NCBI GenBank assembly: GCA_964433615.1 | Contig: CAYSRZ010000001.1 | Span: 1,366 to 65,365 of the forward strand | Reading direction: 5' to 3' | DNA from: an uncultured Acidimicrobium sp. | Lineage (GTDB): Bacteria; Actinomycetota; Acidimicrobiia; Acidimicrobiales; Ilumatobacteraceae | DNA length: 64,000 bases | In this document: positions 9,071 to 50,837 of the stretch, one piece after another | How positions within the stretch are numbered: the first letter of the stretch is position 1 | Layout: every line of letters begins with the position of its first letter | Program-made: the position numbers and the translations under genes | The notes under the pieces: model-generated | What the model saw: the letters and a program-made list of their open reading frames with translations, nothing else | Told to the model about the DNA's origin: nothing | Database searches by the model: none

Positions 9071-9087
9071 GAAAGTAGTGTATTGAC

Positions 9088-9804
9088 GTGCCCTCAAGCC
9101 CCGTCTATTTCCGACAACTCCTGTCGGGTCGCGACTTCGCACAAAACGACGGTCTCGCGGCGCAGATGGCGAACAACGTCTATCTGATCGGGGACATTGA
9201 GACCAAGCAGTGCCTCGTCGTCGACCCTGCTTACGCGACGCAGGAAATCTTGGACCTTGCCGGCGCCGACGGGATGAGCGTGGAGGGTGTCCTTGTGAGC
9301 CACTATCACGCAGACCACATAGGTGGCCACATGATGGGCCACACCATCGCAGGAATCGCCGAGCTGTTGAATGATTGCGACGTTCCCGTACACGTCAACG
9401 AACACGAGGTTCCATGGATCACCCGTACGACGGGTGTCACTTCCTCCCATCTCGTTGCGCATCGCGGGGGCGACACGATCCAGATCGGTTCGCTCACGAT
9501 CGATTTCGTGCACACCCCCGGCCACACGCCTGGCAGTCAGTGTTTTCACGTCCATGGTGCCCTGATTTCCGGGGACACACTTTTCCTCGACGGTTGCGGT
9601 CGGACGGACTTACCGGGCAGCGACCCGGAGCTCATGTATCACAGCTTGCGCACCATTGCATCGCTACCCGATGACACAGTCATCTTTCCTGGGCACCGAT
9701 ACTCGGAGCATCCATACGGTGACCTGCGAACGATCAAGGCCCACAACCACGTGTTCAGGCCCCAATCGATGGAGCAATGGATGCAGTGGTTCGGAGGAAA
9801 CTAG
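9088..9804 (+). CDS. MBL-fold metallo-hydrolase (glyoxalase II / persulfide dioxygenase-like)
   Basis: 238 aa. HYHADHIGG (HxHxDH) motif, then TPGHTPGS and a later GDTLF segment. Confidence 0.8.
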   Translation: MPSSPVYFRQLLSGRDFAQNDGLAAQMANNVYLIGDIETKQCLVVDPAYATQEILDLAGADGMSVEGVLVSHYHADHIGGHMMGHTIAGIAELLNDCDVPVHVNEHEVPWITRTTGVTSSHLVAHRGGDTIQIGSLTIDFVHTPGHTPGSQCFHVHGALISGDTLFLDGCGRTDLPGSDPELMYHSLRTIASLPDDTVIFPGHRYSEHPYGDLRTIKAHNHVFRPQSMEQWMQWFGGN

Positions 9805-10526
9805 ATCGCTGACACGAGCGTGCTGAGACCACTGATGCACAGCAGACCGAGCACGGCGAGCCGAAAACGATTTTCGTCGATGTGTCGGCGCACCCAGACG
9901 CCAACTGCGCTGCCTCCAAGGAGGCACGGAACGGACGCAGTCGAAAGGACGATCTCGTCCGCCGAGATCTTTCCTTGGATGGCAAAGATCGCCGCTGCAT
10001 AGACGCCGCTGAACACGAAGACCGTGTTCAGAGTTGCTCGAAACACTTCCGGCGCGACACGCCGGGACTGCAACACAAAAACGAGCGGCGGCCCATTCGT
10101 GGACGTGGCAGTGTTCAGCACTCCACTCACGAGACCGAATCCGTAGTCGAACCACGGGCCCTTCTTCGTCCCGTCGAATCCGCGTTGCAGGACGACGACT
10201 CCACACAGGATCGAGATACCGAGGACGAGCTTCAACCACCGTTCGTCGACCGTGAAGAGCACGAACGCACCGACGGGACCTCCGAGTACCGTGCAGGCGA
10301 GAAAGCGCTTCGTCAGCGTCGGATGAATGAATCGTCTTCCCTGGACCGAGTGCCCGAGGTTGCCCAACGTCCCGACGAGGGTTGCGACAATGACCGCCTG
10401 CTCCAGATCGAGACGCAACAGCAGGAAGGGAACCGTCAGCAGCGCGAAGCCGAAACCAGCGCTTGCCTGGACGAGGGATGTCGCCAGGATGACGACACAC
10501 ACCAAGACGACGTCCGCGACTTCCAC
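9801..10526 (-). CDS. TauE/SafE family (sulfite-exporter type) membrane permease
   Basis: Polytopic membrane protein with glycine-rich helices typical of TauE/SafE. GTG 10526 lies immediately after the aminotransferase stop at 10528. Confidence 0.7.
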   Translation of the reverse strand: MEVADVVLVCVVILATSLVQASAGFGFALLTVPFLLLRLDLEQAVIVATLVGTLGNLGHSVQGRRFIHPTLTKRFLACTVLGGPVGAFVLFTVDERWLKLVLGISILCGVVVLQRGFDGTKKGPWFDYGFGLVSGVLNTATSTNGPPLVFVLQSRRVAPEVFRATLNTVFVFSGVYAAAIFAIQGKISADEIVLSTASVPCLLGGSAVGVWVRRHIDENRFRLAVLGLLCISGLSTLVSAI

Positions 10527-10527
10527 C

Positions 10528-11841
10528 TCAGACGATCTTTTCGACGGCCTCAGCAAAAGCCGCGGTGTGCACGTCGACGTCGCCGTCTACGTGACTCGGA
10601 CACATCAGTGCCATGTTGTGGAACGGCGTCAGCAGTATTCCCCGATTGAGGGCGCTCAGATGGAAGTACTCCTCCAATTCGTGGTCGACCCGCGACGCCG
10701 CCTGAGCACCATCAGTCGGTGCATCGCTGAACCAATACTCCGCCCGACAACCGAGCTGCTGGACCGACCACGGCAACGTATGAGCTGCAATGACGTCTTG
10801 AACGCCATTCGCCCAACGGGTCGCGAGTGGGATTGTGTGTGCGAAGTGTTCTTCGAGCAGGGACGTCGTCAACGTCGCCTTCATGACGGCCATCGCGAGC
10901 GCACTTCCGCTGAGAGTCCCACCGACGCCGCCGACATCGATCGAATCACGGTCGAGCATCCGTTCGAGGCGATCTGCGACTGCGCTCGACATGCCATATG
11001 CGGCGACGGGCACCCCACCACCGATCGTCTTGCCGATGACGACGAAATCGGGATCGAGATTCCACAGCGACGTGCAACCTCCTGGCGAGGCGCAGATGGT
11101 GTGCGTTTCGTCGATCACAAGGAGCACTCCATATCGCCTCGTCAACTCGCGGACGCCGTGCAAATATCCAGGCTTGGGCAACACGATGCCGATGTTGGTG
11201 AGGGCCGGCTCCATTAGTACGCACGCCACGTCGCCCTGACTCAAGGCCTCCTCCATCGCGTCCAAGTCGTTGAACGCAACGGCCCTGGTCGTCACGGAAG
11301 GATCTACTTGTGGGCCGATGGCCCCCGGCCGGCTCACGGTCCGGCCAGCGTCGTCCAGCACGACGAGTGTCTCGTCGACCGTTCCGTGATAGCACCAGTC
11401 ATTGACGACGACTTTCGGACGATTCGTCATGAAGCGTGCAAAACGCAGCACGAACCGGTTCGCGTCGGTCGCGCTCAACGCGAACTGCCACTTCGGCACG
11501 CCGAAGCGACGGGAGAGATTCTCGGCAACGACGAGCGCATCGCCGCTCGGCAGCATCGAAGTGAGCCCGATGCGAGACTGGGACACGAGGGCCTCGGTCA
11601 CGGCGGTGGTCGAGTGCCCGACCATCGAGCCGGTGTCCCCGAGACAGAAATCGACGTACTCGTTCCCGTCAACGTCTCGGAAACGGCCCCCCTTCGCCTC
11701 CGAAATGAACAGGGGAAACGAACCGGCCCAGCGCGTCATCCATGGCATCGGGACACCCGAGACGAGATGCTCATGGGCCTTGGTTGCGAGCTCGCGCGAA
11801 CGTGGGTGCCGCGACTCGAACAAGGCCATCTCCTCGCGCAT
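10528..11841 (-). CDS. Class III PLP aminotransferase, glutamate-1-semialdehyde aminomutase (HemL)-like subgroup
   Basis: DFCLGDTGSMVGHS, LLVIDETHT, PLP-lysine context VVIGKTIGGGVPVAAYG. Start set at M43 of the ORF (alternative 11829). Confidence 0.85.
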   Translation of the reverse strand: MREEMALFESRHPRSRELATKAHEHLVSGVPMPWMTRWAGSFPLFISEAKGGRFRDVDGNEYVDFCLGDTGSMVGHSTTAVTEALVSQSRIGLTSMLPSGDALVVAENLSRRFGVPKWQFALSATDANRFVLRFARFMTNRPKVVVNDWCYHGTVDETLVVLDDAGRTVSRPGAIGPQVDPSVTTRAVAFNDLDAMEEALSQGDVACVLMEPALTNIGIVLPKPGYLHGVRELTRRYGVLLVIDETHTICASPGGCTSLWNLDPDFVVIGKTIGGGVPVAAYGMSSAVADRLERMLDRDSIDVGGVGGTLSGSALAMAVMKATLTTSLLEEHFAHTIPLATRWANGVQDVIAAHTLPWSVQQLGCRAEYWFSDAPTDGAQAASRVDHELEEYFHLSALNRGILLTPFHNMALMCPSHVDGDVDVHTAAFAEAVEKIV

Positions 11842-11921
11842 CGCGTCACCAAGATGTGCTCTCTTCACGTCCCCCAGTCTTGCCGACGACGGCCCGACGA
11901 GGTGCTCTCTAGACTGTCTCC

Positions 11922-13184
11922 GTGCCCATCGCCACCACGACGCCAGACGTGCGTATCTCGATGTCACGTCTCCGCGGTCGAATAGATGCCCTGGCGGCGA
12001 TCGGGGCGACGCAGGCCGGGGGCTCTTGTCGCCTCGCCCTCACCGATGAAGACCGCCAAGGACGTGACCTCGTCGTCAGTTGGATGTCGGATCTCGGAAT
12101 GGACGTGACGATCGATGCCATCGGCAACATCGTCGGTGTATGGAACGTTGGCGAGGGTCGCGCAGTGATGACCGGATCGCACATCGACACGGTGCGCACC
12201 GGTGGCATCTACGACGGAAACTACGGAGTCCTCGCTGGCCTCGAGGTCGTCGAGGCATGCCAGCAGGCGGGAATCATCCCGAAGCGGCCACTCGCCGTAG
12301 CCGTCTTCACCGACGAGGAGGGCGCTCGATTTGCTCCCGACATGCTGGGCTCCCTCGTCTATGTGGGCGGTCTGGGCCTTGAAGAGGCACTCGACATCCG
12401 CGCGATCGACGGGGCGCGACTCGGTGACGAACTCTCCAAGATCGGATACGCCGGGATGACGCCCTGCCCAGGAATCGCTCCACACGCCTTCGTCGAGTTG
12501 CACATCGAACAGGGTCCCGTGCTGGAGGCTCGCGGCATGAAGCTCGGAGCAGTCACGGGAGTCCAAGGAATCTCATGGCAGGAGGCGACGATCGTTGGAC
12601 AGTCGAACCATGCCGGGACGACCCCCATGGCGTTGCGTCGGGACCCTGTAGCCGCCGGTGCTGCACTCGCCGGTTTCCTTCGTGATCTCGCCCATCGATA
12701 CGGCGGCAATCAGGTGTGCACCGTCGGCAAGTTCGACGTCCACCCCAACCTCGTCAACGTCGTTGCCGCTCGAGTGCAGATGACACTCGACGTACGCAAC
12801 ACCGACGAGGATTTGCTCAAGCGAGCGGAAGCGGAGATCTCCGACTACGTACGCGAGATCGAAACGTCGTTCGGCGTAGACATCTCGCTTCGACCTCTGG
12901 CTCGATTCGAGCCGGTCGAATTCGATGCCGACGTAATCGAGCTCGTCGAACAGATCTGTCTCGGCGTCACGCCGCTGACGATGCGCATGCCAAGTGGTGC
13001 AGGTCACGACGCGCAAATGTTGGCTCGGGTCTGCCCGACTGCGATGATCTTCGTCCCAAGCCACGACGGAATCAGCCACAACCCCGCCGAGCACACAGAC
13101 GACGCCGATCTTGAAAATGGCGCGAACGTGCTGCTCAGAACGATGCTTGCGCTCGCCGACCATGACTTCGGAGTCCGCTCGTGA
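11922..13184 (+). CDS. M20-family Zn amidohydrolase (N-carbamoyl-L-amino acid / beta-ureidopropionase / allantoate amidohydrolase type)
   Basis: 420 aa. GSHIDTVRTGGIYDGNYGVLAGLEV, FTDEEG, ELHIEQGPVLE, GQSNHAGTTPM, PSGAGHDA. Confidence 0.85.
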   Translation: MPIATTTPDVRISMSRLRGRIDALAAIGATQAGGSCRLALTDEDRQGRDLVVSWMSDLGMDVTIDAIGNIVGVWNVGEGRAVMTGSHIDTVRTGGIYDGNYGVLAGLEVVEACQQAGIIPKRPLAVAVFTDEEGARFAPDMLGSLVYVGGLGLEEALDIRAIDGARLGDELSKIGYAGMTPCPGIAPHAFVELHIEQGPVLEARGMKLGAVTGVQGISWQEATIVGQSNHAGTTPMALRRDPVAAGAALAGFLRDLAHRYGGNQVCTVGKFDVHPNLVNVVAARVQMTLDVRNTDEDLLKRAEAEISDYVREIETSFGVDISLRPLARFEPVEFDADVIELVEQICLGVTPLTMRMPSGAGHDAQMLARVCPTAMIFVPSHDGISHNPAEHTDDADLENGANVLLRTMLALADHDFGVRS

Positions 13185-14128
13185 GTCGGACGCTACGCAT
13201 CGCGGCAGCGCAACTCGGCCCGATTCAACGAGCCGACGATCGCGCATCGGTCGTCACACGTTTGATCGCCCTGATGGACGACGCCAAGCGTCACGAGGTG
13301 GATCTCGTCGTCTACCCCGAACTCGCCCTCACGACGTTCTTTCCTCGTTGGTTCGTCGACGACATCACGGAAGCCGACCACTGGTACGAACGCGAGATGC
13401 CATCACCCGTCGTCGCACCGTTGTTCGATAGAGCACGCTCCTACGGCATTGGTTTTTGTCTCGGATACGCCGAACTGACACCCGAAGGCGAACGTTTCAA
13501 CACCCAGATCCTCGTCGAGCGCGACGGGTCGATCGTCGGCAAGTACCGCAAGGTGCATATTCCAGGTCACGAGCACCACGAGCCCGACAGACCGTTCCAA
13601 CACGCCGAACGGTATTACTTCACTCCGAGCACCGAAGGTTTCCCCGTGTGGTCCGCCTTCGGCGGAAGGGTCGGCATGATGATCTGCAACGATCGTCGTT
13701 GGCCCGAGTCATATCGCGTGATGGGGCTGCAGGGAGTCGAGATGATCCTCTGCGGATACAACACACCACTGCACTACGTACCGGACCCCACGCAAGATCC
13801 CCTGCAGGGATTCCACAACTCTCTCGTCATGCAGTCGGGCGCATATCAAAACGGAACGTTCGTGGTCGGCGTCGCCAAGGGTGGCGTCGAAGAAGGCGTC
13901 GACAGCCTCGCGGACAGCATGATCGTTGCGCCATCCGGTGAGATTTTGGCGAAGGCATCGACCTCGGGCGACGAGCTCGTCTGGGCGGACTGCAACCTCG
14001 ACTGGTGCTACCAGTACAAAGACACCCTCTTTGACTTCAACCGCTACAGGCGTCCAGAGCTCTACGGACGCATCTCGGGCCAACGTGGCGTCGATCCGGC
14101 GGACCGAGGACCGTTTAACAAACTGTAA
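13181..14128 (+). CDS. N-carbamoyl-D-amino-acid hydrolase-like (nitrilase superfamily)
   Basis: Very close to D-carbamoylase: VYPELALTTFFPRWF, GKYRKVHIPGH, catalytic Cys in ICNDRRWPE, GYNTP. GTGA overlap with the upstream gene. Confidence 0.9.
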   Translation: MSRTLRIAAAQLGPIQRADDRASVVTRLIALMDDAKRHEVDLVVYPELALTTFFPRWFVDDITEADHWYEREMPSPVVAPLFDRARSYGIGFCLGYAELTPEGERFNTQILVERDGSIVGKYRKVHIPGHEHHEPDRPFQHAERYYFTPSTEGFPVWSAFGGRVGMMICNDRRWPESYRVMGLQGVEMILCGYNTPLHYVPDPTQDPLQGFHNSLVMQSGAYQNGTFVVGVAKGGVEEGVDSLADSMIVAPSGEILAKASTSGDELVWADCNLDWCYQYKDTLFDFNRYRRPELYGRISGQRGVDPADRGPFNKL

Positions 14129-14159
14129 AAGCGTTTTCCTTGCCCTGTAAGGTGAAACC

Positions 14160-16754
14160 ATGTCGTTGGGGGCACACGAGGGGGTCGTCGGCTTTGTCGT
14201 GAACGGGACGCCCGTGTCCGTTCGCTCGTCCCATCCCCACCTCCTCGCCGCCTTGCGCGAGGAGCTCGACATCACCTCCCCGAAGGACGGCTGTTCCCCC
14301 AGCGGCCAGTGCGGCTGTTGCACGGTGCTCGTGAACGGCAAGGCCGTCGTGAGTTGTCAAACCCCACTCGACAAAGTCGACGGAGGAACCGTCACGACCC
14401 TCGAAGGCTTCGAGCCGTCGGTCCGTGAGTCGTTCGCCAACGCGTTCGCCGCATGTGGCGGCCTGCAGTGTGGATTTTGCATACCCGGAATCGTGGTGCG
14501 TGCACATGCGCAAATCGAAAAGAAGGGTGCGGATCTGACTCGGGCGGACATGGCCCGCCACCTCGGTGCACACCTGTGTCGATGCACGGGATATTCGAAA
14601 ATCCTCGACGCGATCGACTGCGTCGCCAAGTCGAGCATTCCCAGCCCGACCCCACTCGGCGGAGTTGGCAGTCGGTCCTCGAAAGTCGAGGCAGCCGCAC
14701 TCACCCTCGGTGACCGCGGGTACGTGGACGACATTCGGGTTCCGGGGATGCTCCATGGTGCACTCGTCTTCACTTCCCATGCCCGTGCCGACATCGTTTC
14801 GATCGACACGTCAAAGGCCCGTCGCGCACCCGGTGTCGTTGCGGTCTACACCGCCGAGGACGTACCGGGCGACCTCATGGTCGGCATCATCTACAAGGAC
14901 TGGCCAGTCATGATTCCCGTGGGGGGACGCACGTCCTATGCCGGTGACGTCCTCGCCATCGTCGTCGCCGAAACCAAAGATCAAGCACGTTCGGCCGTTG
15001 CCGACGTTGACGTCGAGTACGTCGTTCATCCCCCGCTCACCGATCCTGTCGTCGCCTTGCGATCGACAGAAACTGCGGTGTGGAAGACCGAATCCAACGT
15101 CTTGAGCACGAGCGCCTACCGCCGTGGCGACGTCGACGATGCCCTCACGAGGTGCGCCCACGTCGTGTCCGAACGGTTCACGACTCAACGGATCGAGCAC
15201 GCGTTTCTCGAACCCGAGTCGACCCTTGCGGTCTATGACGCCGAGACCGACCACCTCCACGTCTATTCGGGTGGTCAAGGGATCTGGGACGACCGCAACG
15301 ACATTGCCCGCGTCCTGGGCGTAGCCAACGACAAAGTCACCGTCGAACTGATCACCAACGGTGGCGCCTTCGGCGGCAAGGAGGACATGTCGAACCAGGC
15401 TCATGCCTCGCTCGCGGCATGGCTGTTGAAGCGTCCGGTCAAATGCACGCTGTCGCGAGAAGAGAGCTTCCGCATGCATGCCAAGCGCCACCCCATCGCC
15501 ATGGACTACGTCGCCGGATGCGACGACGAGGGACGACTCGTCGCACTCAAAGTTCGAGCGATTGGCGACAGTGGGGCGTATGCGAGCGTGGGCATGAAGG
15601 TTTTGGAGCGCATGGCGGGTCACGCAAGCGGCCCGTATCACGTGCCAAACATCGACGTCGAGGCCATTGCCGTGCGCACGAACAACCCGATCTGCGGAGC
15701 GTTCCGAGGATTCGGGGCCAACCAGGCGCAGTTTGCCATGGAGGGCGTGCTTGATCGGCTCGCAGAGAAGTGCGGCATCGACGGCTGGACCATCCGCTCG
15801 CGCAATGTGATCAAACCGGGCATGGTCTGGGGGCCGGGCCAGATCATGGACGATGGATGCCTCGGTGCAGAAGCATGCCTCGAGGCCGTGAAGGACTCCT
15901 ACTACGCGGCAAAGAACGAAGGCAGGGCCGTGGGCGTCGGTCTTGGCCTCAAGAACAGCGGTCTCGGTAACGGATTCAAGGAAATCACGAAAGCTGTCGT
16001 GCGACTCCGCTCTGACGGAGTGACCGAAGTTCGACACGGTTGGACGGAGATGGGTCAGGGAATCAACACGATCGCCGCACAGGTCGTGGTGCACGAGCTG
16101 GGTGTCGATCCGGATTCGATCGTCGTCATCGTCGACACGACACGCGAACTTGGACTGGGACAAACCACAGGCTCGCGAGGAACCCTGATGGGGGCTGGAG
16201 CGGTCAAGGATGCATGCGATACCGCAAAGGCGAACGGCCTGACCAAGGACGTCGACCACGTCGGCGAATATCGCGTCGACTGGACGACCAAGCTCGGCGA
16301 TCCCGGGGTGGAGCATCCGATCATTCACTCCACCTTCGGCTACGCCGCACAACTCGTCGTCATGGACCCCGAGACCCAGAAGATCGATCGCGTCGTTGCC
16401 GCTCATGACGTCGGTAGGGCCATGAATCCGCTGTTGTGCGAAGGCCAAATCGAAGGCAGCGTGCATATGGGTCTGGGTTACGCCTTGACCGAGGACTTTC
16501 CGTCCGATCCCGAAACGGGGTTTCCGACCTTTTCCACGCTGCGTCAACTCGGCATCATCAGAGCAAAGGACGTGCCTCCGATCGAGGTACGTCTCATTGA
16601 GTCGCCTCAGCCCAACGCGCCCTACGGCATCAAGGGCGTCGGCGAGATCGGACTCGTACCGACTGCAGGGGCAGTCGCCGCTGCGCTTCACGGATGCGAT
16701 GGTCGATGGCGCAACGCCCTTCCGATGAAGGACCGTGCGAGCGAGGAGGACTGA
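14160..16754 (+). CDS. Molybdenum hydroxylase with fused N-terminal 2x[2Fe-2S] domain (XdhD / aldehyde oxidoreductase architecture, no FAD domain)
   Basis: 864 aa. CSPSGQCGCC and CGFCIPG...CRCTGY iron-sulfur motifs, then GGAFGGKED, AFRGFGANQ and C-terminal GIKGVGE. Confidence 0.9.
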   Translation: MSLGAHEGVVGFVVNGTPVSVRSSHPHLLAALREELDITSPKDGCSPSGQCGCCTVLVNGKAVVSCQTPLDKVDGGTVTTLEGFEPSVRESFANAFAACGGLQCGFCIPGIVVRAHAQIEKKGADLTRADMARHLGAHLCRCTGYSKILDAIDCVAKSSIPSPTPLGGVGSRSSKVEAAALTLGDRGYVDDIRVPGMLHGALVFTSHARADIVSIDTSKARRAPGVVAVYTAEDVPGDLMVGIIYKDWPVMIPVGGRTSYAGDVLAIVVAETKDQARSAVADVDVEYVVHPPLTDPVVALRSTETAVWKTESNVLSTSAYRRGDVDDALTRCAHVVSERFTTQRIEHAFLEPESTLAVYDAETDHLHVYSGGQGIWDDRNDIARVLGVANDKVTVELITNGGAFGGKEDMSNQAHASLAAWLLKRPVKCTLSREESFRMHAKRHPIAMDYVAGCDDEGRLVALKVRAIGDSGAYASVGMKVLERMAGHASGPYHVPNIDVEAIAVRTNNPICGAFRGFGANQAQFAMEGVLDRLAEKCGIDGWTIRSRNVIKPGMVWGPGQIMDDGCLGAEACLEAVKDSYYAAKNEGRAVGVGLGLKNSGLGNGFKEITKAVVRLRSDGVTEVRHGWTEMGQGINTIAAQVVVHELGVDPDSIVVIVDTTRELGLGQTTGSRGTLMGAGAVKDACDTAKANGLTKDVDHVGEYRVDWTTKLGDPGVEHPIIHSTFGYAAQLVVMDPETQKIDRVVAAHDVGRAMNPLLCEGQIEGSVHMGLGYALTEDFPSDPETGFPTFSTLRQLGIIRAKDVPPIEVRLIESPQPNAPYGIKGVGEIGLVPTAGAVAAALHGCDGRWRNALPMKDRASEED

Positions 16755-16755
16755 C

Positions 16756-17826
16756 GTGTCAGACACGACTCCCGGATTCGTTTGTGCGCACCACCACCTC
16801 TACTCGACTCTCGCCCGCGGAATGCCCAGTCCCCCGCGCACACCTGCGGACTTCATCGGCGTGCTCGAACAGGTGTGGTGGAGGCTGGATGCCGCCCTCG
16901 ACGACGAGATGATCTACTGGAGCGCAAAAATGGGAGCGGTCGAGGCACTGATGGCGGGAACGACCTGCATCATCGATCACCACGAGTCACCGAACGCAAT
17001 CCCAGGGTCCCTCGCCCTCATCACGCAGGCGTGCCACGAAGTGGGAGTTCGGGTGAATGCAAGCTATGGCGTGACCGACAGGTGGAGCGACGAGGGAACG
17101 ATTCGACAGCGCGTGTCGCCGACTTCGACAATGACACGCGCAGCACGTCTGGGGCTCGAGGAGAACCGTCGACATCTCGCCTCGGGTGGTCGCGGGATGG
17201 TCGGTGTGCATGCGGCCTTCACGGCAAGCGACGACACACTTATCGCAGCGGCAGATCTCGCACGTGAATTCGGCGTCGGAGTTCACATTCACGTCGCCGA
17301 AGGACCCGACGACGCCGACGCCCATCAGCGTCTTGCACACATCGCGACGGACTCGTGGCTCATCGTGCACGGGGTACACCTGTCGTCACCCCTCAAAGGA
17401 ACGCTCGTTCACAATCCACGCTCCAACATGAACAACGCCGTCGGCTATGCGCGCCCCATGCGCCTCAAGATGCCCGTTGCGCTCGGGACAGACGGAATCG
17501 GTGCCGACATGCCAGAAGAGGCACGCGTGGCCTTCGCCAGATTGAGGGAATCTGACCTGACGGCAGGTGCAGACGTCGTCGGACGCTGGCTCGACACGAC
17601 CCAGGCCCTCTTCCCCGAGGCGAACCGCGACGTCGTGACGTGGAACTACGACGCCATGGATTCCGTCTGGCACCTCGCCTACACGCCAGGTACACGTCCC
17701 CACACGGTCGTCGTTGACGGCAAGACTGTGCTGGCTGATGGACGACCGACGCTCGTCGATCTCGACGAGGTCCGACACCACGCTTCACTGCACGCAACGA
17801 GACTCCACGAAAGGTTGGCAGCATGA
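16756..17826 (+). CDS. ssnA: SsnA-family amidohydrolase (N-terminally short)
   Basis: [61 protein letters not shown]. These match blocks I recall from E. coli SsnA. Start GTG 16756 (or 16735, overlapping the upstream gene). Confidence 0.85.
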
Positions 17827-18866
17827 CGCTCCCACGACAGGCACTCAATCCGGCGACGGGTCACGCTCGCATGGCCGTGTATCTGCAGGACGCTCATCCG
17901 ATACGCGAAGGGATGGAGATCGCCAAGTACGCCGAGGCCAAGGGCTTCGAAGCGGTATGGCAGGCCGAGAGCCGCCTCGTGCGCGAAGCGACCGTCCCGA
18001 TGGCGGCCTTTGCCTCGGTGACGACCACGCTCAAAGTGGGTTCGGGAGTCGTCGACTGCTGGAGCAGGAATCCGGCTCGACTGGCCGCGACGTTTTCCAC
18101 GCTCGACGACCTCGCACAAGATCGAGTCATCCTCGGCATCGGAGCGTGGTGGGATCCGCTCGCTCAGAAAGTCGGGATATCGCGAGCCAAGCCCCTTCGC
18201 GCAATGAGGGAGATCGTGCTCAACGTACGGGCGCTGTTGAACAACGAAAACGTCACTTTCCACGGCGAATTCGTCAATTTCGACGGCATCGAGCTCGATT
18301 ACGTCTATCAGGAACGCCGTGCCAAGAACGTTCCGATCTACATCGGAGCGACCGGCATGCAGATGATGGAGTTGACGGGTGAAATCGCGGACGGCGTCGT
18401 CCTCAACTACTTGGTGTCACCCGATTACAACACCACCGCGATCGAAGCCCTGCAGAAAGGTGCGGACAAGGCGGGAAGGAAACTCGACGACATCGACCGA
18501 CCCCAACTCGTCGTCTGCAGCGTGCACGAAGACCGACAGACCGCTCTCGACATGGCGCGTCAGATGGTCACGCAATACCTCGGTCAGCAGCCTCACATCA
18601 TGAAGGCCTCCGGAGTTCCACAGTCGCTATTGGACAAGGTCGGCGAAGAGCTCACCTGGCCGGCGACCCACGAGCAGGTCGTTGCGGCATCCCGGCACGT
18701 ACCGGACGAGATCGTCCAGATGTTGACGGCGAGTGGAACCCCGGCGGAGGCACGCAAACAGGTGCGCCATTACATCGACAACGGAGCGACCTGTCCGATC
18801 CTGTACCCGCTGGGCGACACCAAGGCGATGATCGATGCATTCGCCGGATGGGATGGGAACGCGTGA
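17823..18866 (+). CDS. Luciferase-like monooxygenase (LLM) class oxidoreductase, F420- or flavin-dependent
   Basis: 347 aa. TIM-barrel LLM pattern ([32 protein letters not shown]). ATGA overlap with ssnA. Confidence 0.8.
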
Positions 18867-19711
18867 GCGTCTCCACTCCCCGTCGTCTCCAGGACGCCCT
18901 TGCGTTTAGGCGTGACAACCCGGCCGCGCTGGTAATCACCGGTGGAACCGACCTCATGGTCGAGGTCAACTTCAACAGGCGAAAGCCCCAGGACGTCCTC
19001 TCCCTCGCACGGGTAGACGAACTCCGACACATCGACTCATCGTCGCCATCATCCGTACGAATCGGAGCGGCAGTGCCGTGGGCCGAGATGGAGCGAGGTC
19101 AGCTCGCTCGGCTCTTACCGGCACTCGCCGAAGCTGCTCGCACCGTCGGTTCTCCACAGATTCGTCAAGCCGGAACGCTGGGTGGCAACCTTGGAACCTG
19201 TTCCCCCGCCGGTGACGGCCTTCCCGTGTTGGGCGCCCTCGACGCATCGATCGTCCTCTCCTCGTTTGCCGGTGAGCGCTCCGTCCCGTTCTCGCAGTTC
19301 ATGATTGGTCCGAAGAAGAACGTCCTACGACCCGATGAACTGATCGTTGCAGTCGACGTTCCTCTCACCTCTGCGTGGCAGGGATATTCGAAGGTCGGCG
19401 TGCGCAACGCCATGGTCATCTCGGTGGCATCGGCGTGTGCGTCCCTCTCGCGCGACGGGAAGAGCTTCGCCGTCGCACTTGGGGCGGTCGGGCCGACGAT
19501 CATTCGGTGCACCGCGACCGAGTCTTGGCTGTCTGGTCTCGGATCAAGTGCCAAGGAATCCCTGTCCGACGCAACTGTTCGCAACGAACTCGGTGAACGG
19601 GCCGCCCAAGAGGCCCGACCAATCACCGACCATCGCTCAACTGCCGACTATCGGCGCCATGCCGTCTCGGTCATCGTCCGCAGACTCGCCGAAAGGGCCA
19701 TCCATGAATGA
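18863..19711 (+). CDS. FAD-binding subunit of a molybdenum hydroxylase (CoxM/XdhB/YgfM type)
   Basis: [28 protein letters not shown]-terminal [12 protein letters not shown] 18863 forms a GTGA overlap with the LLM stop. Confidence 0.85.
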
Positions 19712-20186
19712 GCACTACACGCTGCGGGTGAATGGCAGGGCATGTGAGGTGCGCGATTCCTGGGTGGGAGAGTCGCTCCTCTACGTGTTGCGCCAGCGTC
19801 TCGGCCTTCCGGGGACCAAGGGGGCATGTGAGCAAGGTGAATGCGGTTCGTGCACGGTACTCGTCGACGGAAATGCGGTGTGTTCGTGCCTCGTCATGGC
19901 TGCGACGTGCGTCGACACCGAGATCACGACGGTCGAGGGTCTCGGTAACGGCCAGGCGCTCACGGACGTCCAGCAGGCCTTCGTCGAGGCTGGTGGAGTG
20001 CAGTGCGGTTTCTGCACACCGGGTCTCATCGTTGCAGTCCACGACCTGCTCGAAGACAACCCCACGCCGACGTCGTCACAAGTCAAAGAAGCCCTCTCGG
20101 GCAACATCTGTCGCTGCACGGGGTACGGCCGCATCTTCGATGCAGTGCAGCTCGTGATCTCTCGACGCACCGGAGCCGCCCGATGA
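19704..20186 (+). CDS. [2Fe-2S]-binding small subunit of a molybdenum hydroxylase (CoxS/XdhC-iron-sulfur type)
   Basis: Starts [24 protein letters not shown] and CGFCTPG...CRCTGY motifs. The ORF upstream of 19704 overlaps the FAD subunit. Confidence 0.9.
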   Translation: MNEHYTLRVNGRACEVRDSWVGESLLYVLRQRLGLPGTKGACEQGECGSCTVLVDGNAVCSCLVMAATCVDTEITTVEGLGNGQALTDVQQAFVEAGGVQCGFCTPGLIVAVHDLLEDNPTPTSSQVKEALSGNICRCTGYGRIFDAVQLVISRRTGAAR

Positions 20187-22444
20187 CCACCTCGACGACC
20201 ACACGCACTCGTGACGTCCTTGGGACGAGCGCGCTGCGTCCCGACGGTGTGGCAAAGGTTCAGGGATCGTTCGAATTCTCCTCCGACGCCAACGATGACA
20301 ACATGGCCTGGGGTGCGACCCTTCGAAGCCCCCACCCCTACGCGCGCATCGTCTCGATTGACGTGTCCGGTGCTTATGCGATCGCCGGTGTGCACGCCGT
20401 CATCACCGCCACCGACGTGCCGGGTAAGGCGACGTACGGTCTCATCAGTTCCGATCAGCCTGTCTTTGCTTCGGACTACGTGCGATACATGGGTGAGCCA
20501 GTTGCGGCGGTGGCGGCGGACCATCCGGAGACCGCGCGCCGCGCGCTCCAGGCGATCCAGGTGACCTACGAAGTGCTTACACCCCTCACCGATCCGGAAG
20601 AGGCGATTGCCGGCACCCGTGCGCCCATCCATCCTCTCGGCAACATCCTGCGCGAGCAGCGAATCGTGCGGGGAGATCAGAACCTCATAGGAGAGGTCGT
20701 GGTCGAGGACACGTACGACATCGGAATGCAGGATCAGGCCTTCCTCGGACTCGAAGCGGCTCTCGCTCGTCCACTCGCCACGGGCGGAGTCGAGCTCATC
20801 GTTGCCACCCAATGGTTGCACGAGGACCGAAAGCAGATCGCCGACTGCCTCGCACTTGCAGAAGAGGACGTGTTCTTGACCCTCGGCGGCGTGGGTGGAG
20901 CGTTTGGCGCACGTGAGGACATCAGCCTCCAGGTGCACTGCTGCCTGCTTGCACTCACCATCGACCGACCGGTCAAGATGCAATACGGACGCGAAGAGTC
21001 CTTCTTCGGCCACGTCCATCGACATCCTGCAAGGATTTGGATGCGTCACCACGCCACCCGCGACGGCAAGATCCAGCGCATCGAGGCGCGGATGGTCTTC
21101 GACGGCGGCGCGTACACGAGCACGTCGCCAGCCGTGCTCATCAACGGCATCACGCACACCCAAGGCCCATACGCCTGCGACAACGCAACCGTCGAGGGTT
21201 TTGCCGTGCGTACGAACAATCCGCCATGTGGTGCAATGCGAGGTTTCGGCGTCGTCCAGGCTTGCTTTGCCCACGAGTCGCAGATGGACAAACTTGCCGA
21301 GGCCTGTGGTCTCTCCCCTGTCGAGATCCGATTGCGCAATGCAATGAAGACCGGTGATCCGCTGATCACCGGACAGCCCGTCGAGAGCGTCGCACCGGTC
21401 GAGCGCTGCATTCGAGAAACGGCCGCGATCGCCCTACCCGCGCCCCTCGACGGATCGGATCCCTTCAACCTTCCCGGCGGGTCCGGTCTCACGACCCGAG
21501 CGTCACACGTCGTTCGCGGAATCGGCTGGGGCGTGTCGATCAAGAACCTGATGTACAGCGAGGGTTTCGACGATTACGCGACGGCTCGCTGCATCTTGCG
21601 AGACGGTGTCGCCTATCTCAAGTTCGCAACCTCTGAGGTCGGACAGGGCTTCGTCACCCTGGCCCCACAAATCGCCCGAACCTTGCTCGGCGTCGACGAC
21701 GTCGTGCTCGAACCGATGGACACCGCCATTGGTTCGGCTGGCTCAACGTCGGCCTCCCGCCAAACGTGGATGAGCGGTGGCGCGGTGGATGGAGCGTGCC
21801 GCGTCGTTCGAGAACGCCTCTTCGAACACGTCGGAGCCACCCACGGTGTCGACCCTCTTCGCCTCGCCATCGACGGAACTGACGTCGTCGACCAATTCGG
21901 CACGCTTCGCGTACCCGTGGTGGATGCGACCAAAGGTGTCGAGTTCGCCCACACCTACGAGCATCATCATCGAAAGACCGAGGACTTGGACGAAAACGGA
22001 CAAGGAAATTGCCATGTCGCGTTCGCCTTCGTCGCCCATCGCGCAGTCGTCGATGTGGACGTCGAGCTTGGGCTCGTCAAGGTCGTCCAGATCGCTACAG
22101 CTCAGGACGTCGGCCAGGTACTCAACCCGCTCAGCGTCCTCGGACAGATCGAAGGCGGAATCGCACAGGGCTTGGGGCTGGCGATCATGGAAGAAATCGT
22201 GGTCGAGAACGGAATCGTGCGGAATCCGTCCTTCACCGACTACCTCCTGCCCACCACCTTGGACGCACCAGACGTCGTTGCGGTGACGATCGAAGAACCC
22301 GAGCCACAAGCCCCTCTCGGCGCAAAGGGCGTTGGTGAGCCGCCCTGTATATCCGTCACTCCGGCGATCGTGGCGGCCATTCGGGACGCGACGAAGCGTT
22401 CATTGACGCGGGTGCCCGTGAGGCCCTACGACATCTGCATCTGA
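20183..22444 (+). CDS. Molybdopterin-binding large subunit of a xanthine dehydrogenase-family hydroxylase
   Basis: Starts MTTSTTTRTRDVLGTS. GGVGGAFGARED, AMRGFG, C-terminal GAKGVGEPP. ATGA overlap with the small subunit. Confidence 0.9.
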   Translation: MTTSTTTRTRDVLGTSALRPDGVAKVQGSFEFSSDANDDNMAWGATLRSPHPYARIVSIDVSGAYAIAGVHAVITATDVPGKATYGLISSDQPVFASDYVRYMGEPVAAVAADHPETARRALQAIQVTYEVLTPLTDPEEAIAGTRAPIHPLGNILREQRIVRGDQNLIGEVVVEDTYDIGMQDQAFLGLEAALARPLATGGVELIVATQWLHEDRKQIADCLALAEEDVFLTLGGVGGAFGAREDISLQVHCCLLALTIDRPVKMQYGREESFFGHVHRHPARIWMRHHATRDGKIQRIEARMVFDGGAYTSTSPAVLINGITHTQGPYACDNATVEGFAVRTNNPPCGAMRGFGVVQACFAHESQMDKLAEACGLSPVEIRLRNAMKTGDPLITGQPVESVAPVERCIRETAAIALPAPLDGSDPFNLPGGSGLTTRASHVVRGIGWGVSIKNLMYSEGFDDYATARCILRDGVAYLKFATSEVGQGFVTLAPQIARTLLGVDDVVLEPMDTAIGSAGSTSASRQTWMSGGAVDGACRVVRERLFEHVGATHGVDPLRLAIDGTDVVDQFGTLRVPVVDATKGVEFAHTYEHHHRKTEDLDENGQGNCHVAFAFVAHRAVVDVDVELGLVKVVQIATAQDVGQVLNPLSVLGQIEGGIAQGLGLAIMEEIVVENGIVRNPSFTDYLLPTTLDAPDVVAVTIEEPEPQAPLGAKGVGEPPCISVTPAIVAAIRDATKRSLTRVPVRPYDICI

Positions 22445-23629: not shown

Positions 23630-24943
23630 TCAATCAGGAATACCTGATTGGCGACCGAGGACGCGATTCAGATACGCATTGGAGAACATGCCCGTCGGAT
23701 CGAGACGATCCCGGAGTTCTACAAACTTGTCAAATTCAGGATAGAGGCCGCGAAGGCTGGATTTGTCCTGAAAATGGATCTTTCCCCAGTGGGGACGACC
23801 CCCGTAGTCGACCATGATCTCCTCTACGGCACGAAAATATGGTTCGTAGTCCATTCCCCGATACATGTGAACCGCTACGTATGCGCTGTCTCGTCCGTAT
23901 GCAGTCGACAGCGGGATGTCGTCGGCCTTCACCGAGCGAACCTCGACGGGAAAGCTCACTCGAAAACCACGATCCTCGACCATCGCCCTGAGACGACCGA
24001 GTGCATCCGGGAGCACACCCAGCGGTATCGAATACTCCATCTCGCAGAAGCGTACGAACCGCTTGCTGGCAAAGATCTGGTGACTCGCGTCGATTCGCTC
24101 CTGACGTCCCTGCGACGGGAGGGCCGTCGCAAGCTTTGGAATCAACGAGGGAGCGATCTTGCCGACACGACAGACTGCTCCGAACGCGATGTTTTCCATC
24201 ACGATCTTGTTCCAAAACGTGCCGATGGGCTTGCGGGCAGTATGTGACGCGGTCGTTCGATTGTTCCGCTTGGTGAGCGCCCACTTCGTGTGCGGCACCC
24301 AATAGAACTCGAAGTGGTCGTTCTCTCTCGTGTACCGATCGAAATTCGCCTCAACGTCTGCGACCCTTTCCGGCTGCTCGACGGCGTGCAAGGTGAATGC
24401 TGGAACGACGCTCAACGTGACGTCCACAATCACGCCGAGTGCACCAAGCGACACCCTGCCCAACTGCCAGATACCAGGGTTCTGATCCTTTGAGCAGGTG
24501 AGCACATCGCCATTGGCGGTGACCAGGGTGAATGCCACGACTTGTGTGGCCAGACCACCGAGTTCAATACCCGTCCCATGGGTCGACGTCGAGAGCGCTC
24601 CGAGGATCGACTGATAGGTCACGTCGCCGAGGTTCGGCATCGCTAGACCGATCTCCGCAAGTAGCACGTTGAGCTCGGCGATGGTGGTTCCCGCACGCAC
24701 GGTCACCGTGAGACGCTCCGTATCAACGGCCACGATTCCCCGATGATGGCGAAGCGACACGACCATCTCTTCTGGTCGAGCGATGCCGGTGAAACTGTGT
24801 CCCGAGCCGACCACCTTCAGGCGCCGTCCGGACGCCTTCGCCTCACCGACAACCTTGACGACGTCTTCGGTCCTTCCGACCCGTTGTGATGCGACGAGTC
24901 CTCGAGCGACTTGGTTGCCTGCCCAGTTCCGCCACGTCGTCAT
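23630..24943 (-). CDS. FAD-linked L-gulono-1,4-lactone / D-arabinono-1,4-lactone oxidase-dehydrogenase family protein
   Basis: MTTWRNWAGNQ start, GSGHSF, C-terminal ALO-domain GGRPHWGK. ATG at M90 of the ORF gives a 4-nt overlap with the MFS stop. Confidence 0.85.
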   Translation of the reverse strand: MTTWRNWAGNQVARGLVASQRVGRTEDVVKVVGEAKASGRRLKVVGSGHSFTGIARPEEMVVSLRHHRGIVAVDTERLTVTVRAGTTIAELNVLLAEIGLAMPNLGDVTYQSILGALSTSTHGTGIELGGLATQVVAFTLVTANGDVLTCSKDQNPGIWQLGRVSLGALGVIVDVTLSVVPAFTLHAVEQPERVADVEANFDRYTRENDHFEFYWVPHTKWALTKRNNRTTASHTARKPIGTFWNKIVMENIAFGAVCRVGKIAPSLIPKLATALPSQGRQERIDASHQIFASKRFVRFCEMEYSIPLGVLPDALGRLRAMVEDRGFRVSFPVEVRSVKADDIPLSTAYGRDSAYVAVHMYRGMDYEPYFRAVEEIMVDYGGRPHWGKIHFQDKSSLRGLYPEFDKFVELRDRLDPTGMFSNAYLNRVLGRQSGIPD

Positions 24944-26175
24944 GCCGCAGATGCCTCGCGACCGGAGAGTGCATACACGAGCAACGATCCGGTGAGGAGC
25001 GCCCCGAGTACGGCGAGTGAGTTGTATCCGATTCCCTTGCGAATGAAGCCGCTGGAGAAACCTGCGATTCCTCCACAAAGGCTCATCACCAAGTCGGCAC
25101 TTCCCTGGACGCGAACTCGCGCGTCTGGCGGAATGCTCTCGGACAACAGGCCAGACCCACCAACCAGACCGAAATTCCAGCCGATGCCGAGCAGGAGCAA
25201 GCCAGGCCACAAAAGCGTCGGCGAGTCTCCGGCGAGGCTGGAGAAAGCGGAAGCGACGATCAGAACGACCGCGCCAACTTGGATTGTGCGGATGCGACCA
25301 AAGGAATCCGAGAAACGACCAATCAGCGGACTGAACGCGTACATGCCAGCGATGTGCAGCGACACGATAAATGCGCTCACGTCCTCGTGACCATGCAACT
25401 TGAGGTGCACTGGCGTCATCGTCATCACCGCGACCATCGTCATCTGCGACGCCGCCATCGCGACCAGACCGAGACGGGACTCCCTCGAATGGCGGAGCGG
25501 AACAGCAATGTCGGCAATCGACCGACTCGTCGAATCAGCAGCACCGAGTCGACCGGCGACCTCGAGCGGATCGGGACGGAGTCGGATCATCACATTCAAA
25601 AACGACGCGCTGAAAAACAGCCCGGAAAACACCCACGGTCCCGTGTAGAGGTTCCAGCCGAAGAGCGACTCACCAAGCGACTCTGCAGGCTTGATCAGGA
25701 TCGGCCCGAATACCGCTCCGAATGTCGACGCGAACAGCACGCGGCTCATGGCCGAGCCTCGATGTTCCGGTTCAGCGAGGTCCATCGCGGCATAGCGAGA
25801 CAGCAGATTCGAGGCCTGACCGTTGCCGAACATGAACAAGCCGAACAAAAAGATGGCGATATTTGAGGTTTCGACTCCGACGCCGGCAACAAGACCCCCA
25901 ACAAGTGCAAGTCCGTATCCGAGTGCCAACCCCTTGCGACGGCCGTTCATGTTCATGAATCGCGCGAGACTCTGGGCCATGAACGCGGTGCCGACGGTGA
26001 CCGTAGCTGTCGCCATGCCACCAAGAGGCGTTTCTTGTCCGAGAATGTCTTGGATGACGAAGGCTCCGACCGTCACGGCTGCCGAGAGCGCCGCCGAACC
26101 GACGATTTGGCCTGCGGTCAAGACGCGCAGGACCTTGCGCTGGATCAACGCCCTTTCCACGGAGTCGATCGTCAT
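24940..26175 (-). CDS. MFS transporter
   Basis: About 12 predicted TM helices. Start at M100 of the ORF gives a 4-nt overlap with the pyk stop. Confidence 0.8.
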   Translation of the reverse strand: MTIDSVERALIQRKVLRVLTAGQIVGSAALSAAVTVGAFVIQDILGQETPLGGMATATVTVGTAFMAQSLARFMNMNGRRKGLALGYGLALVGGLVAGVGVETSNIAIFLFGLFMFGNGQASNLLSRYAAMDLAEPEHRGSAMSRVLFASTFGAVFGPILIKPAESLGESLFGWNLYTGPWVFSGLFFSASFLNVMIRLRPDPLEVAGRLGAADSTSRSIADIAVPLRHSRESRLGLVAMAASQMTMVAVMTMTPVHLKLHGHEDVSAFIVSLHIAGMYAFSPLIGRFSDSFGRIRTIQVGAVVLIVASAFSSLAGDSPTLLWPGLLLLGIGWNFGLVGGSGLLSESIPPDARVRVQGSADLVMSLCGGIAGFSSGFIRKGIGYNSLAVLGALLTGSLLVYALSGREASAA

Positions 26176-27548: not shown

Positions 27549-27635
27549 TGGTGTCGAAGGGGGGACTTGAACCCCCACGCCCTTTCGAGCGCCAGCCCCT
27601 CAAGCTGGTGCGTCTGCCAATTTCGCCACTTCGAC
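27549..27635 (-). tRNA. tRNA-Leu (anticodon GAG), encoded CCA
   Basis: Minus-strand sequence GTCGAAGTGGCGAAATTGGCAGACGCACCAGCTTGAGGGGCTGGCGCTCGAAAGGGCGTGGGGGTTCAAGTCCCCCCTTCGACACCA. It has a 7-bp acceptor stem, anticodon loop TTGAGGG, a long variable arm and a GTTCAAGT T-loop. Confidence 0.9.
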
Positions 27636-50836: not shown

Positions 50837-50837
50837 C

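Follow-up and report, generated by a model that had tools for sequence, protein, structure and literature searches.

The DNA described in this report is a stretch of 64,000 nucleotides (the window) of contig CAYSRZ010000001.1 from an uncultured Acidimicrobium sp. of the family Ilumatobacteraceae (assembly GCA_964433615.1). At positions 11922-22444 the window carries eight plus-strand genes, denoted here as g1 to g8, that form a real, intact, and tightly packed operon (Table 1). An original prediction, made from the sequence alone, had described eight genes on one strand, and this was confirmed by the full-length matches of all eight to Pfam and NCBIfam profiles, with two corrections of gene starts, that of g8 to the ATG at 20183 and that of g4. 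The true start of g4 is the GTG at 16756, which follows a GAGGAGG ribosome-binding site, and not position 16735; the reading frame of g7 is 19704-20186, and the mechanically called open reading frame (ORF) at 19732-20157 lies in the wrong frame. The successive junctions from g1 to g8 measure -4, +31, +1, -4, -19, -8, and -4 nt, and a scan found no plus-strand terminator-like site within the block. Every gene-family call of the original prediction was also found to be right. Taken together, homology and synteny make it probable that the block forms a catabolic operon that takes purines to a C3 product by a variant of the reductive uric acid (2,8-dioxopurine) pathway.

Table 1. Genes and other features of the window and of related loci (locus numbers beginning with L); positions are those of the window unless a locus is named
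Feature	Positions	Strand	Description
g1	11922-13184	+	M20 Zn-amidase, hydantoinase/carbamoylase family
g2	13181-14128	+	CN-hydrolase (nitrilase superfamily), N-carbamoyl-D-amino-acid hydrolase (D-carbamoylase)
g3	14160-16754	+	Fused 2Fe-2S and molybdopterin hydroxylase-type enzyme, XdhAC/2,8-dioxopurine dehydrogenase type
g4	16756-17826	+	Short-form SsnA-like amidohydrolase, 356 aa
g5	17823-18866	+	Luciferase-like (LLM) oxidoreductase, F420-dependent Mer-like kind
g6	18848-19711	+	FAD-binding subunit of a three-subunit xanthine-dehydrogenase-family enzyme
g7	19704-20186	+	2Fe-2S subunit of the g6-g8 enzyme
g8	20183-22444	+	Molybdopterin subunit, PucD type
u1	10528-11868	-	Divergent class-III (pyridoxal phosphate) aminotransferase; Pfam Aminotran_3
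Divergent intergenic region	11869-11921	.	Conserved 12-mer and inverted partner
Oxidoreductase pair	6550-9142	-	479-aa protein, then GFO/IDH/MocA oxidoreductase
MBL-fold hydrolase	9088-9804	+	GloB/persulfide-dioxygenase-like
TauE/SafE gene	9801-10556	-	Sulfite-exporter family
FAD oxidase and transporter	23630-26472	-	D-arabinono-1,4-lactone/gulonolactone-oxidase family, then MFS transporter
tRNA gene	27552-27635	-	
tRNA gene	50841-50923	-	
Mini-YgfK	L083 11051-12841		
Mini-YgfK	L075 8758-10542	-	
Mini-YgfK	L070 from 4415		
Mini-YgfK	L053 11074-12749		
YqeB and XdhC-family genes	L086 14572-16252	-	
Small deaminase-fold gene	L007 4550-5125	-	Cytidine/deoxycytidylate-deaminase fold
Clade lacking g3 and g5			L023, L024, L026, L036, L037, L039, L042, L045, L046

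In 2025, two groups solved the reductive uric acid pathway of Escherichia coli and clostridia, which proceeds via 2,8-dioxopurine (PMC12507026; bioRxiv 10.1101/2025.04.24.650524; commentary PMC12990295). Urate is reduced to 2,8-dioxopurine ("yanthine") by XdhD-YgfM in E. coli and by the fused, FAD-less, selenium-dependent XdhAC (2,8-dioxopurine dehydrogenase, DOPDH) in Clostridium sporogenes. YgfK, or UacX in Clostridium difficile, reduces the ring, and ureidomethyl-hydantoin results from the opening of the pyrimidine ring by SsnA. HyuA then opens the hydantoin to 2,3-diureidopropionate, both ureido groups are stripped by YgeW/YqeA (or the hydrolase UacY) and YgeY, and YgeX converts 2,3-diaminopropionate to pyruvate (PMC12507026; bioRxiv 10.1101/2025.04.24.650524). 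YgfK and UacX (PF01180) are both Fe-S flavoenzymes (PMC12507026). The original prediction was right to link the block to the ygfK-ssnA-ygfM-xdhD locus of E. coli and in its idea of a purine-type N-heterocycle route that ends in decarbamoylations. It had considered the chemistry of the E. coli locus to be poorly defined; the two 2025 studies assign reductive uric acid degradation to it (PMC12507026; bioRxiv 10.1101/2025.04.24.650524).

The fused molybdenum enzyme g3 was found to score 830.4 bits against TIGR03311 (cutoff 830.45), a family of 848 aa named selenium-dependent xanthine dehydrogenase, with residues 12-860 aligned to positions 3-845 of the 848. The next best family was pucD (449 bits), and TIGR03313, the family of E. 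coli XdhD, gave 163 bits; the identity of g3 to E. coli XdhD is only 24%. There is no FAD domain in g3, and its architecture and size match those of XdhAC from C. sporogenes, in which the molybdenum domains cover residues 307-839. In an alignment with rat xanthine dehydrogenase (XDH), residues E408, R484, F518, F606, and E829 of g3 correspond to E802, R880, F914, F1009, and E1261, all of which are kept, and T670 stands at the position of A1078. The active site of DOPDH departs from that of bovine xanthine oxidoreductase (XOR) only at F1009V and A1078T/S (Liu et al., bioRxiv 10.1101/2025.04.24.650524). Thr670 of g3 fits the second of these changes and Phe606 does not fit the first, although the loop alignment around F606 is uncertain. 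The "Glu606" substrate-orienting residue of E. coli XdhD was also considered as a marker for g3 and was dropped, as the region is gapped at 24% identity. The active site of g3 appears to be compatible with a purine substrate but is not decisive. The g3 enzyme most likely removes the C6 oxygen of urate, which is the opposite direction to a hydroxylation.

The molybdopterin subunit g8 scored 824.2 bits against TIGR03196 (pucD), above the cutoff of 783.65. It keeps the equivalents of E802 and E1261 and has Asn at the R880 position, where E. coli XdhA likewise lacks Arg. The domains of g6 are FAD_binding_5 and CO_deh_flav_C (Pfam), and its best NCBIfam match was XdhB at 168 bits, under the cutoff of 310. 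The best NCBIfam match of g7 was pucE at 162 bits (cutoff 254), and g7 is 48% identical to E. coli XdhC. Both g6 and g7 thus fall below the equivalog cutoffs, with correct domain architectures. The three genes appear to encode an ordinary three-subunit XDH-type enzyme, which is proposed to make urate. The original prediction had called g6 YgfM-like; it is instead the XdhB-type subunit that belongs with g7 and g8, with 27% identity to YgfM (E = 1e-9) and E = 5e-32 to XdhB. Since g3 lies at the TIGR03311 threshold and g8 over the pucD threshold, the two molybdenum enzymes come from two different families. The suggestion, also made originally, that they carry out two successive ring hydroxylations is probably wrong, because g6-g8 would be the urate-making hydroxylase and g3 most likely works in the reverse direction. 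C. sporogenes pairs XdhABC with XdhAC in the same way that the window pairs g6-g8 with g3. The g6-g8 enzyme also resembles PucABCDE of Bacillus subtilis in that g8 passes the PucD equivalog and g7 and g6 have PucE and XdhB as their best matches. Unlike that system, the window has no PucA or PucB (XdhC, MobA-like) maturation genes, and the route downstream of the enzyme would be reductive and not based on uricase.

The best families for g4 were SsnA NF005540 (242.2 bits, cutoff 444) and TIGR03314 (235.1 bits, cutoff 455.5), followed by 8-oxoguanine deaminase at 94 bits. The protein is 33% identical to residues 56-440 of E. coli SsnA. E. coli SsnA and six short forms all keep the HxH and HxHxxE motifs, His205, H219-N220, D246, WWRLD, RSNMNNxVGY, and LGTDGIG without change, and g4 has all the metal ligands and catalytic residues of the E. 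coli enzyme. The protein database was found to contain over 7,600 homologs of g4 at E ≤ 1e-20, and because the top 120 are all 335-377 aa in length, the short form is a trait of the family. A truncated pseudogene was rejected on the basis of the same lengths and the strong ribosome-binding site at 16756. We propose that g4 opens the pyrimidine ring of dihydro-2,8-dioxopurine. Given the 235 bits of g4 against a cutoff of 455.5 for the family used in the survey of Li et al. (IPR017700/TIGR03314; PMC12507026), the short SsnA of the Acidimicrobiia probably lay outside that survey.

Pfam places g5 in Bac_luciferase (PF00296) with 222 bits. The top 16 NCBIfam matches are all F420-dependent families, none of which reaches its cutoff (Mer, 176 bits versus 276). 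The nine best solved structures are likewise all F420 enzymes, the top one being the methylene-tetrahydromethanopterin reductase Mer (1z69, 133 bits). No YgfK homolog was found in the window by tblastn (E < 1e-5), and the LLM gene stands at that position. From these matches, g5 is a probable F420-dependent reductase that would stand in for YgfK/UacX as the 2,8-dioxopurine reductase. A similar replacement was noted by Li et al. in SsnA neighborhoods of Chloroflexota without YgfK or UacX, where a "luciferase family" (PF00296) putative F420-dependent enzyme was proposed as the reductase on bioinformatic grounds only (PMC12507026, Fig. 3c and Discussion). The LLM gene next to SsnA and its proposed role are the same in the window. 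The phylum is different, and the carbamoylase pair and the linkage to XDH were not described for the Chloroflexota clusters.

The amidase g1 reached 386.7 bits with TIGR01879 (cutoff 204) and 419 bits with NF006771 (cutoff 399), and its nearest solved structures are an L-carbamoylase (3n5f) and an N-carbamoyl-beta-alanine amidohydrolase (8c46). It is an M20 enzyme, but of the carbamoylase/allantoate-amidohydrolase subfamily, with no similarity to YgeY detectable by tblastn (E 1e-5). We infer, as a plausible role, that g1 cleaves the 3-(beta)-ureido group as YgeY does. For g2, the Pfam CN_hydrolase domain scored 165 bits, and the protein aligns along its whole length with D-carbamoylases of known structure (8i99, 378 bits at E = 2e-112; 1fo6 and 1erz, approximately 340 bits). 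Like YgeW/UacY, it may plausibly remove the 2-(alpha)-ureido group. As a D-carbamoylase homolog, g2 agrees with the D (R) configuration proposed for the ureido intermediates and with UacY of C. difficile, which is D-aminoacylase-like. Removal of the 2-ureido group in C. difficile is hydrolytic and not phosphorolytic, as is proposed here for g2; UacY is an amidohydrolase-fold homolog of D-aminoacylase, whereas g2 is a nitrilase-fold D-carbamoylase. There is also a likeness to the hydantoinase process of the Agrobacterium/Pseudomonas type, since g2 is a close homolog of its D-carbamoylase and the ureidomethyl-hydantoin of the proposed route is likewise a 5-substituted hydantoin. The window differs in having neither a hydantoinase nor a racemase, and in that g2 sits in a purine operon.

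The distribution of these genes was determined by a scan of one genome per species for relatives of g4, which confirmed at least 589 places. Of the best 80, nearly all carry the label Acidimicrobiia (Ilumatobacteraceae, Acidimicrobiales, Microthrixaceae) or unclassified Actinomycetota. Among the matches listed, the closest relative of g4 is 81% identical, and an identical g3 protein occurs on freshwater-metagenome contigs with the same gene order. A total of 81 related loci, again almost all from Acidimicrobiia or unclassified Actinomycetota, were compared by tblastn with the window proteins. The mechanical ORF calls gave some opposite-strand artefacts in high-GC loci, and therefore presence or absence was taken from tblastn. 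This neighborhood comparison, which the original prediction had recommended as a check, found the gene order kept in many Acidimicrobiia (Ilumatobacteraceae) loci, and the complete g1-g8 order recurs widely among the 81. In more distant loci the g6-g8 unit is shifted upstream, on either strand, while g1/g2-g3-g4-g5 stay together. Sequence of at least 5.5 kb was available on each side of the SsnA-like gene in 35 loci, and 16 of them have g1, g2, g3, a reductase, and g6-g8 all together, which argues that the arrangement is not due to chance. In the 48 loci that could be evaluated on both sides of g4, g3 occurs with the LLM gene in 36 and with a YgfK-like gene in 1, a reductase occurs without a nearby g3 in 5, neither is found in 6, and g3 is never found without a reductase.

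In four loci (L053, L070, L075, and L083) the LLM gene is absent, and a YgfK-like protein is encoded beside the SsnA gene instead. The YgfK-like protein scored 434 bits with TIGR03315 and is 35-46% identical to residues 1-408 of E. coli YgfK. This "mini-YgfK" of approximately 596 aa consists of residues ~1-405 of YgfK and a C-terminal 4Fe-4S dicluster domain, without the central NAD(P)H/FAD module. The three mini-YgfK loci that could be placed in the g4 tree are dispersed among LLM-type loci, and this scatter points to one reductase having taken the place of the other in the same reaction step.

Other related loci carry additional genes. The order in L049 (Microthrixaceae) is a D-hydantoinase-type gene cut by the end of the locus, g6-g7-g8, g1-g2-g3-g4-g5, diaminopropionate ammonia-lyase, and 8-oxoguanine deaminase; from this content, L049 would be close to a complete pathway locus. 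Its hydantoinase is the only one in the 81 loci (39% identity to HyuA; TIGR02033, 305 bits on a 294-aa fragment). The diaminopropionate ammonia-lyase gene directly follows the LLM gene in L049 (336 bits) and L079 (332 bits; NF006058, cutoff 276). The urate-producing 8-oxoguanine deaminase is found in L049 (603 bits, cutoff 532), L084, and L086, and Bmp/PnrA-type ABC transporter genes are found in L066, L075, L083, and L084. These additions of deaminase, lyase, and transporter define the two ends of the route, with purines and urate entering and diaminopropionate leaving.

Two of the related loci contain further genes. L086, from a metagenome-assembled genome (MAG) of the Acidimicrobiia, has a YqeB gene (TIGR03309, 294 bits versus 220; selenium-dependent molybdenum-cofactor maturation) and an XdhC-family gene approximately 7-8 kb downstream of its g4 homolog, which hints that the fused molybdenum enzyme may be selenium-dependent outside anaerobes too. 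On a 4.68-Mb Acidimicrobiia contig, L007 has a small gene of the cytidine/deoxycytidylate-deaminase fold between the XDH genes and g1. The product could be a small-type guanine deaminase, a candidate assignment from a weak TadA-like match of 48 bits.

The steps of the proposed route are as follows. The PucD-type enzyme g6-g7-g8 would oxidize hypoxanthine and xanthine to urate, and g3 would strip the C6 oxygen from urate to give 2,8-dioxopurine. A hydride would then be passed by g5 from F420H2 to the pyrimidine ring, forming dihydro-2,8-dioxopurine and yielding the CH2 group later found in ureidomethyl-hydantoin, in a reaction akin to the reduction of the pterin iminium carbon by Mer. Hydrolysis of the pyrimidine ring by g4 would give ureidomethyl-hydantoin, and an enzyme encoded outside the window would open its hydantoin ring, with 2,3-diureidopropionate as the product. 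The 2-ureido group would be cleaved by g2 and the 3-ureido group by g1, both hydrolytically, with the formation of 2,3-diaminopropionate, CO2, and NH3. The final removal of diaminopropionate would be the task of an unlinked ammonia-lyase or, possibly, of the divergent aminotransferase. Relative to the gut version of the pathway, we propose that the Fe-S flavoprotein reductase and the ATP-yielding carbamoyltransferase and carbamate kinase have been replaced by a deazaflavin-dependent reductase and plain hydrolases. These proposed replacements all point the same way. The Ilumatobacteraceae are aerobic, and a deazaflavin reductase with plain hydrolases would suit an aerobic, heterotrophic host.

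The block shares with the E. coli cluster (ygeW-ygeX-ygeY-hyuA-yqeA ... ygfK-ssnA-ygfM-xdhD) an SsnA-type amidohydrolase, a molybdenum enzyme with a fused FeS domain, and a nearby XDH, and both would follow the same sequence of steps, from dehydroxylation through reduction and ring opening to two ureido cleavages. It differs in that g3 belongs with TIGR03311 and not TIGR03313, there is no YgfM-type partner in the window, and HyuA and YgeX are absent. An LLM enzyme takes the place of YgfK, a D-carbamoylase that of YgeW/YqeA, and another M20 subfamily that of YgeY. C. sporogenes and C. difficile also have a fused FeS-Mo enzyme of the DOPDH type, approximately 850 aa and without a FAD subunit, in addition to a separate three-subunit XDH. 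Unlike these gut Bacillota, the window host is a freshwater member of the Acidimicrobiia, its reductase is an LLM enzyme and not an Fe-S flavoenzyme, and its SsnA is of the short form.

Several observations weigh against this assignment. The g3 protein lies 0.05 bit under its family cutoff and retains Phe where DOPDH has Val (F1009). At the 802 and 880 positions, the Glu and Arg of g3 are replaced by Gln and Asn in the characterized E. coli XdhD, and hence the active-site residues do not define the C6 regiochemistry. The A1078 position is a weak marker, since g8 too has Ser there. As g3 has no FAD partner of its own, no electron donor is assigned. The scores of g4 are approximately half the SsnA cutoffs, with the first ~57 profile positions (about 50 residues) missing. 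No F420 biosynthesis or F420-reducing gene was found among the larger ORFs of the window, so that it is homology only that points to F420. A tblastn search of the window found no homologs of HyuA or another hydantoinase, of the diaminopropionate lyase YgeX, or of YgfK, YgeW, and YqeA; without a hydantoinase or lyase, one ring-opening step and the final step are unaccounted for. One clade of about nine loci (Table 1) keeps a contiguous g1-g2-g4-g6-g7-g8 without g3 and g5; in these genomes, either the two genes have been relocated elsewhere or the SsnA-like enzyme has another substrate. The joint absence of g3 and g5 was considered as repeated co-loss and rejected, because nearly all such loci form one clade in the g4 tree; the absence is mostly a single event and is weak evidence. 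Finally, the published surveys present the pathway as limited to anaerobes and host-associated habitats, with enrichment in animal guts.

Other interpretations of the operon were also considered. The two molybdenum enzymes could hydroxylate some other N-heterocycle (nicotinate, a pterin or lumazine, or a substituted pyrimidine) in succession, with the LLM enzyme acting as a reductase or monooxygenase, the SsnA-like enzyme opening the ring, and the carbamoylases finishing the route. This would agree with the large subunit of nicotinate dehydrogenase being the best solved match of g8 (274 bits) and the third-best of g3 (253 bits), with the fully XOR-like hydroxylase active site of g3, and with a host that is likely aerobic when the published pathway is described as restricted to anaerobes. 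We consider such an oxidative route, with the two successive hydroxylations of the original prediction, unlikely, however. The g8 protein passes the pucD equivalog and g3 sits at the TIGR03311 cutoff, both of which are families of purine enzymes, and DOPDH itself clusters next to the nicotinate dehydrogenases (bioRxiv 10.1101/2025.04.24.650524). Moreover, the 8-oxoguanine deaminase, diaminopropionate lyase, YgfK-like protein, and Bmp transporters of the related loci fit a route from urate to diaminopropionate and not one for nicotinate or pterins. The same deaminase, linked in L049, L084, and L086, would fit a function of the enzymes mainly in clearing oxidized purines (8-oxoguanine, 8-oxopurines, 2,8-dioxopurine) derived from damaged nucleotides or scavenged DNA, as opposed to the use of bulk urate for growth. 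The reaction of g3 could then proceed in the oxidative sense, from 2,8-dioxopurine to urate; DOPDH works in both directions in vitro (bioRxiv 10.1101/2025.04.24.650524). The hosts are oligotrophic planktonic bacteria, which would also be in keeping with such a function. With an oxidative g3, however, the cluster would have no consumer of urate, and g5 and g4 would lose their substrate. The linkage to xanthine dehydrogenase and to Bmp-type ABC transporters points to general purine catabolism, and a primary role in clearance is, in our estimate, rather improbable.

A reductive pyrimidine or hydantoin module that happens to lie beside an unrelated XDH seems very unlikely. The LLM enzyme would then be an analogue of dihydropyrimidine dehydrogenase, the SsnA-like enzyme an analogue of dihydropyrimidinase, and the carbamoylase a beta-ureidopropionase, with the aminotransferase taking beta-alanine. 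The chemistry does parallel that of PydA/PydB/PydC, as stressed by Li et al. (PMC12507026), g1 resembles N-carbamoyl-beta-alanine amidohydrolase, and a class-III aminotransferase gene adjoins the operon. Such a module needs one carbamoylase only, however, and no alpha-specific D-carbamoylase, and the family of g4 is SsnA and not dihydropyrimidinase. It also leaves unexplained the diaminopropionate lyase, the 8-oxoguanine deaminase, and the presence of g3, which never occurs without a reductase in the 48 evaluable loci.

The preferred reading of the block as a reductive urate operon is of a pathway type that is already known, and the exchange of YgfK for an LLM enzyme has been flagged once before, bioinformatically, in the Chloroflexota. 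The original prediction had recognized the gene combination in no described pathway, and had named membership of a characterized pathway as evidence to the contrary. The combination itself stands as undescribed, and the novelty of the pathway type does not. In the literature searched, we did not find descriptions of the short SsnA family, the pairing of a D-carbamoylase with an M20 carbamoylase, the joining to a PucD-type XDH operon, the mini-YgfK alternates, or the wide occurrence in free-living Acidimicrobiia. A 2021 review of F420 makes no mention of purines. In the published MAG survey, 4 of 7 C. sporogenes proteins had to be present, and the genes proved to be enriched in host-associated Bacillota (bioRxiv 10.1101/2025.04.24.650524). 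Because 5 of the 7 query enzymes have no passing counterpart here, this BLAST criterion would probably miss genomes such as the present one.

The operon suggests that a rebuilt reductive urate pathway is common in free-living Acidimicrobiia. A broader proposal, which we put forward tentatively and with less than even confidence, is that aerobic planktonic Acidimicrobiia, represented by hundreds of species-level genomes of lake, river, soil, and sea origin, break down urate without the oxygen-dependent uricase by means of a Mer-like, F420H2-dependent LLM reductase and hydrolytic D- and beta-carbamoylases, with the hydantoin opened either by the short SsnA itself or by an enzyme other than HyuA. 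If true, the proposal would give F420 its first role in purine catabolism and would overturn the view of the pathway as limited to anaerobes and guts. It would also point to an uncounted route for the recycling of purine nitrogen in lakes. If the LLM enzyme is the 2,8-dioxopurine reductase, it would offer a simpler, Fe-S-free reductase for the engineering of urate-lowering probiotics, a stated goal of both 2025 papers (PMC12507026; bioRxiv 10.1101/2025.04.24.650524).

The region between g1 and the divergent aminotransferase gene contains a conserved 12-mer, CTCTCTAGACTG, at 11905-11916, which is 6 nt 5' of the start of g1 and is shared by the window and the three closest genomes aligned (L008-L010). 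Together with CAGTCT (11875-11880), CTCTCTAGACTG forms an inverted repeat with a predicted hairpin of -12.4 kcal/mol, and GTGCTCTCT is present twice, at 11856 and 11902. The inverted repeat of CTCTCTAGACTG may be a putative operator or leader of the divergent promoter region. A sigma-70 consensus scan of 11869-11921 gave no match, and the region as a whole had no more matches than expected from shuffled sequence; the sites from the promoter and terminator scans were, in general, no more numerous than in shuffled sequence. An Rfam scan of the whole window returned two tRNAs only and no purine or other riboswitch.

The aminotransferase scored 626 bits with NF005453 ("transaminase", cutoff 425), and its likely start is 11868 or 11841. 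Its gene adjoins g1 in 24 of the 81 related loci, all of Ilumatobacteraceae-type synteny. It is a candidate accessory gene whose product could possibly dispose of the diamino-acid end product. On the other side, the operon is followed by a convergent gene for a DEAD-box helicase. The other larger ORFs of the window are housekeeping genes (such as pyk, an opp/dpp-type ABC system, tpi-pgk-gap, uvrABC, polA, rpsA, fab genes, and trpBC). Scans of these larger ORFs found no uricase, allantoinase, dihydropyrimidinase, hydantoinase, XdhC-type gene, or nearby regulator, in agreement with the original prediction, which had reported the same absences for all of these except hydantoinase. The sole regulator-like gene is an ANTAR response regulator approximately 28 kb away. 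The second of the two tRNA genes overlaps the mechanical N-terminal extension of the ANTAR ORF (49923-50939), and the start of the ANTAR gene therefore lies further downstream.

Upstream of the aminotransferase gene, a gene for a metallo-beta-lactamase (MBL)-fold hydrolase overlaps tail to tail with the TauE/SafE gene, and the two look like a sulfur-detoxification pair. The pair is syntenic with the operon in 29 related loci and is missing from distant loci that retain the core. The MBL-fold gene was considered as the absent hydantoinase and was rejected, since it is GloB/persulfide-dioxygenase-like, is paired with TauE, and is absent from distant core-bearing loci. Further upstream, a 479-aa protein with weak similarity to ProA/aldehyde dehydrogenases (122 bits versus a cutoff of 289) is followed by a GFO/IDH/MocA oxidoreductase, and many Ilumatobacteraceae loci have kept these two genes upstream of the operon. 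Directly past the convergent helicase gene lie the genes for a FAD oxidase and a major facilitator superfamily (MFS) transporter, which are syntenic in 19 and 9 loci, respectively.

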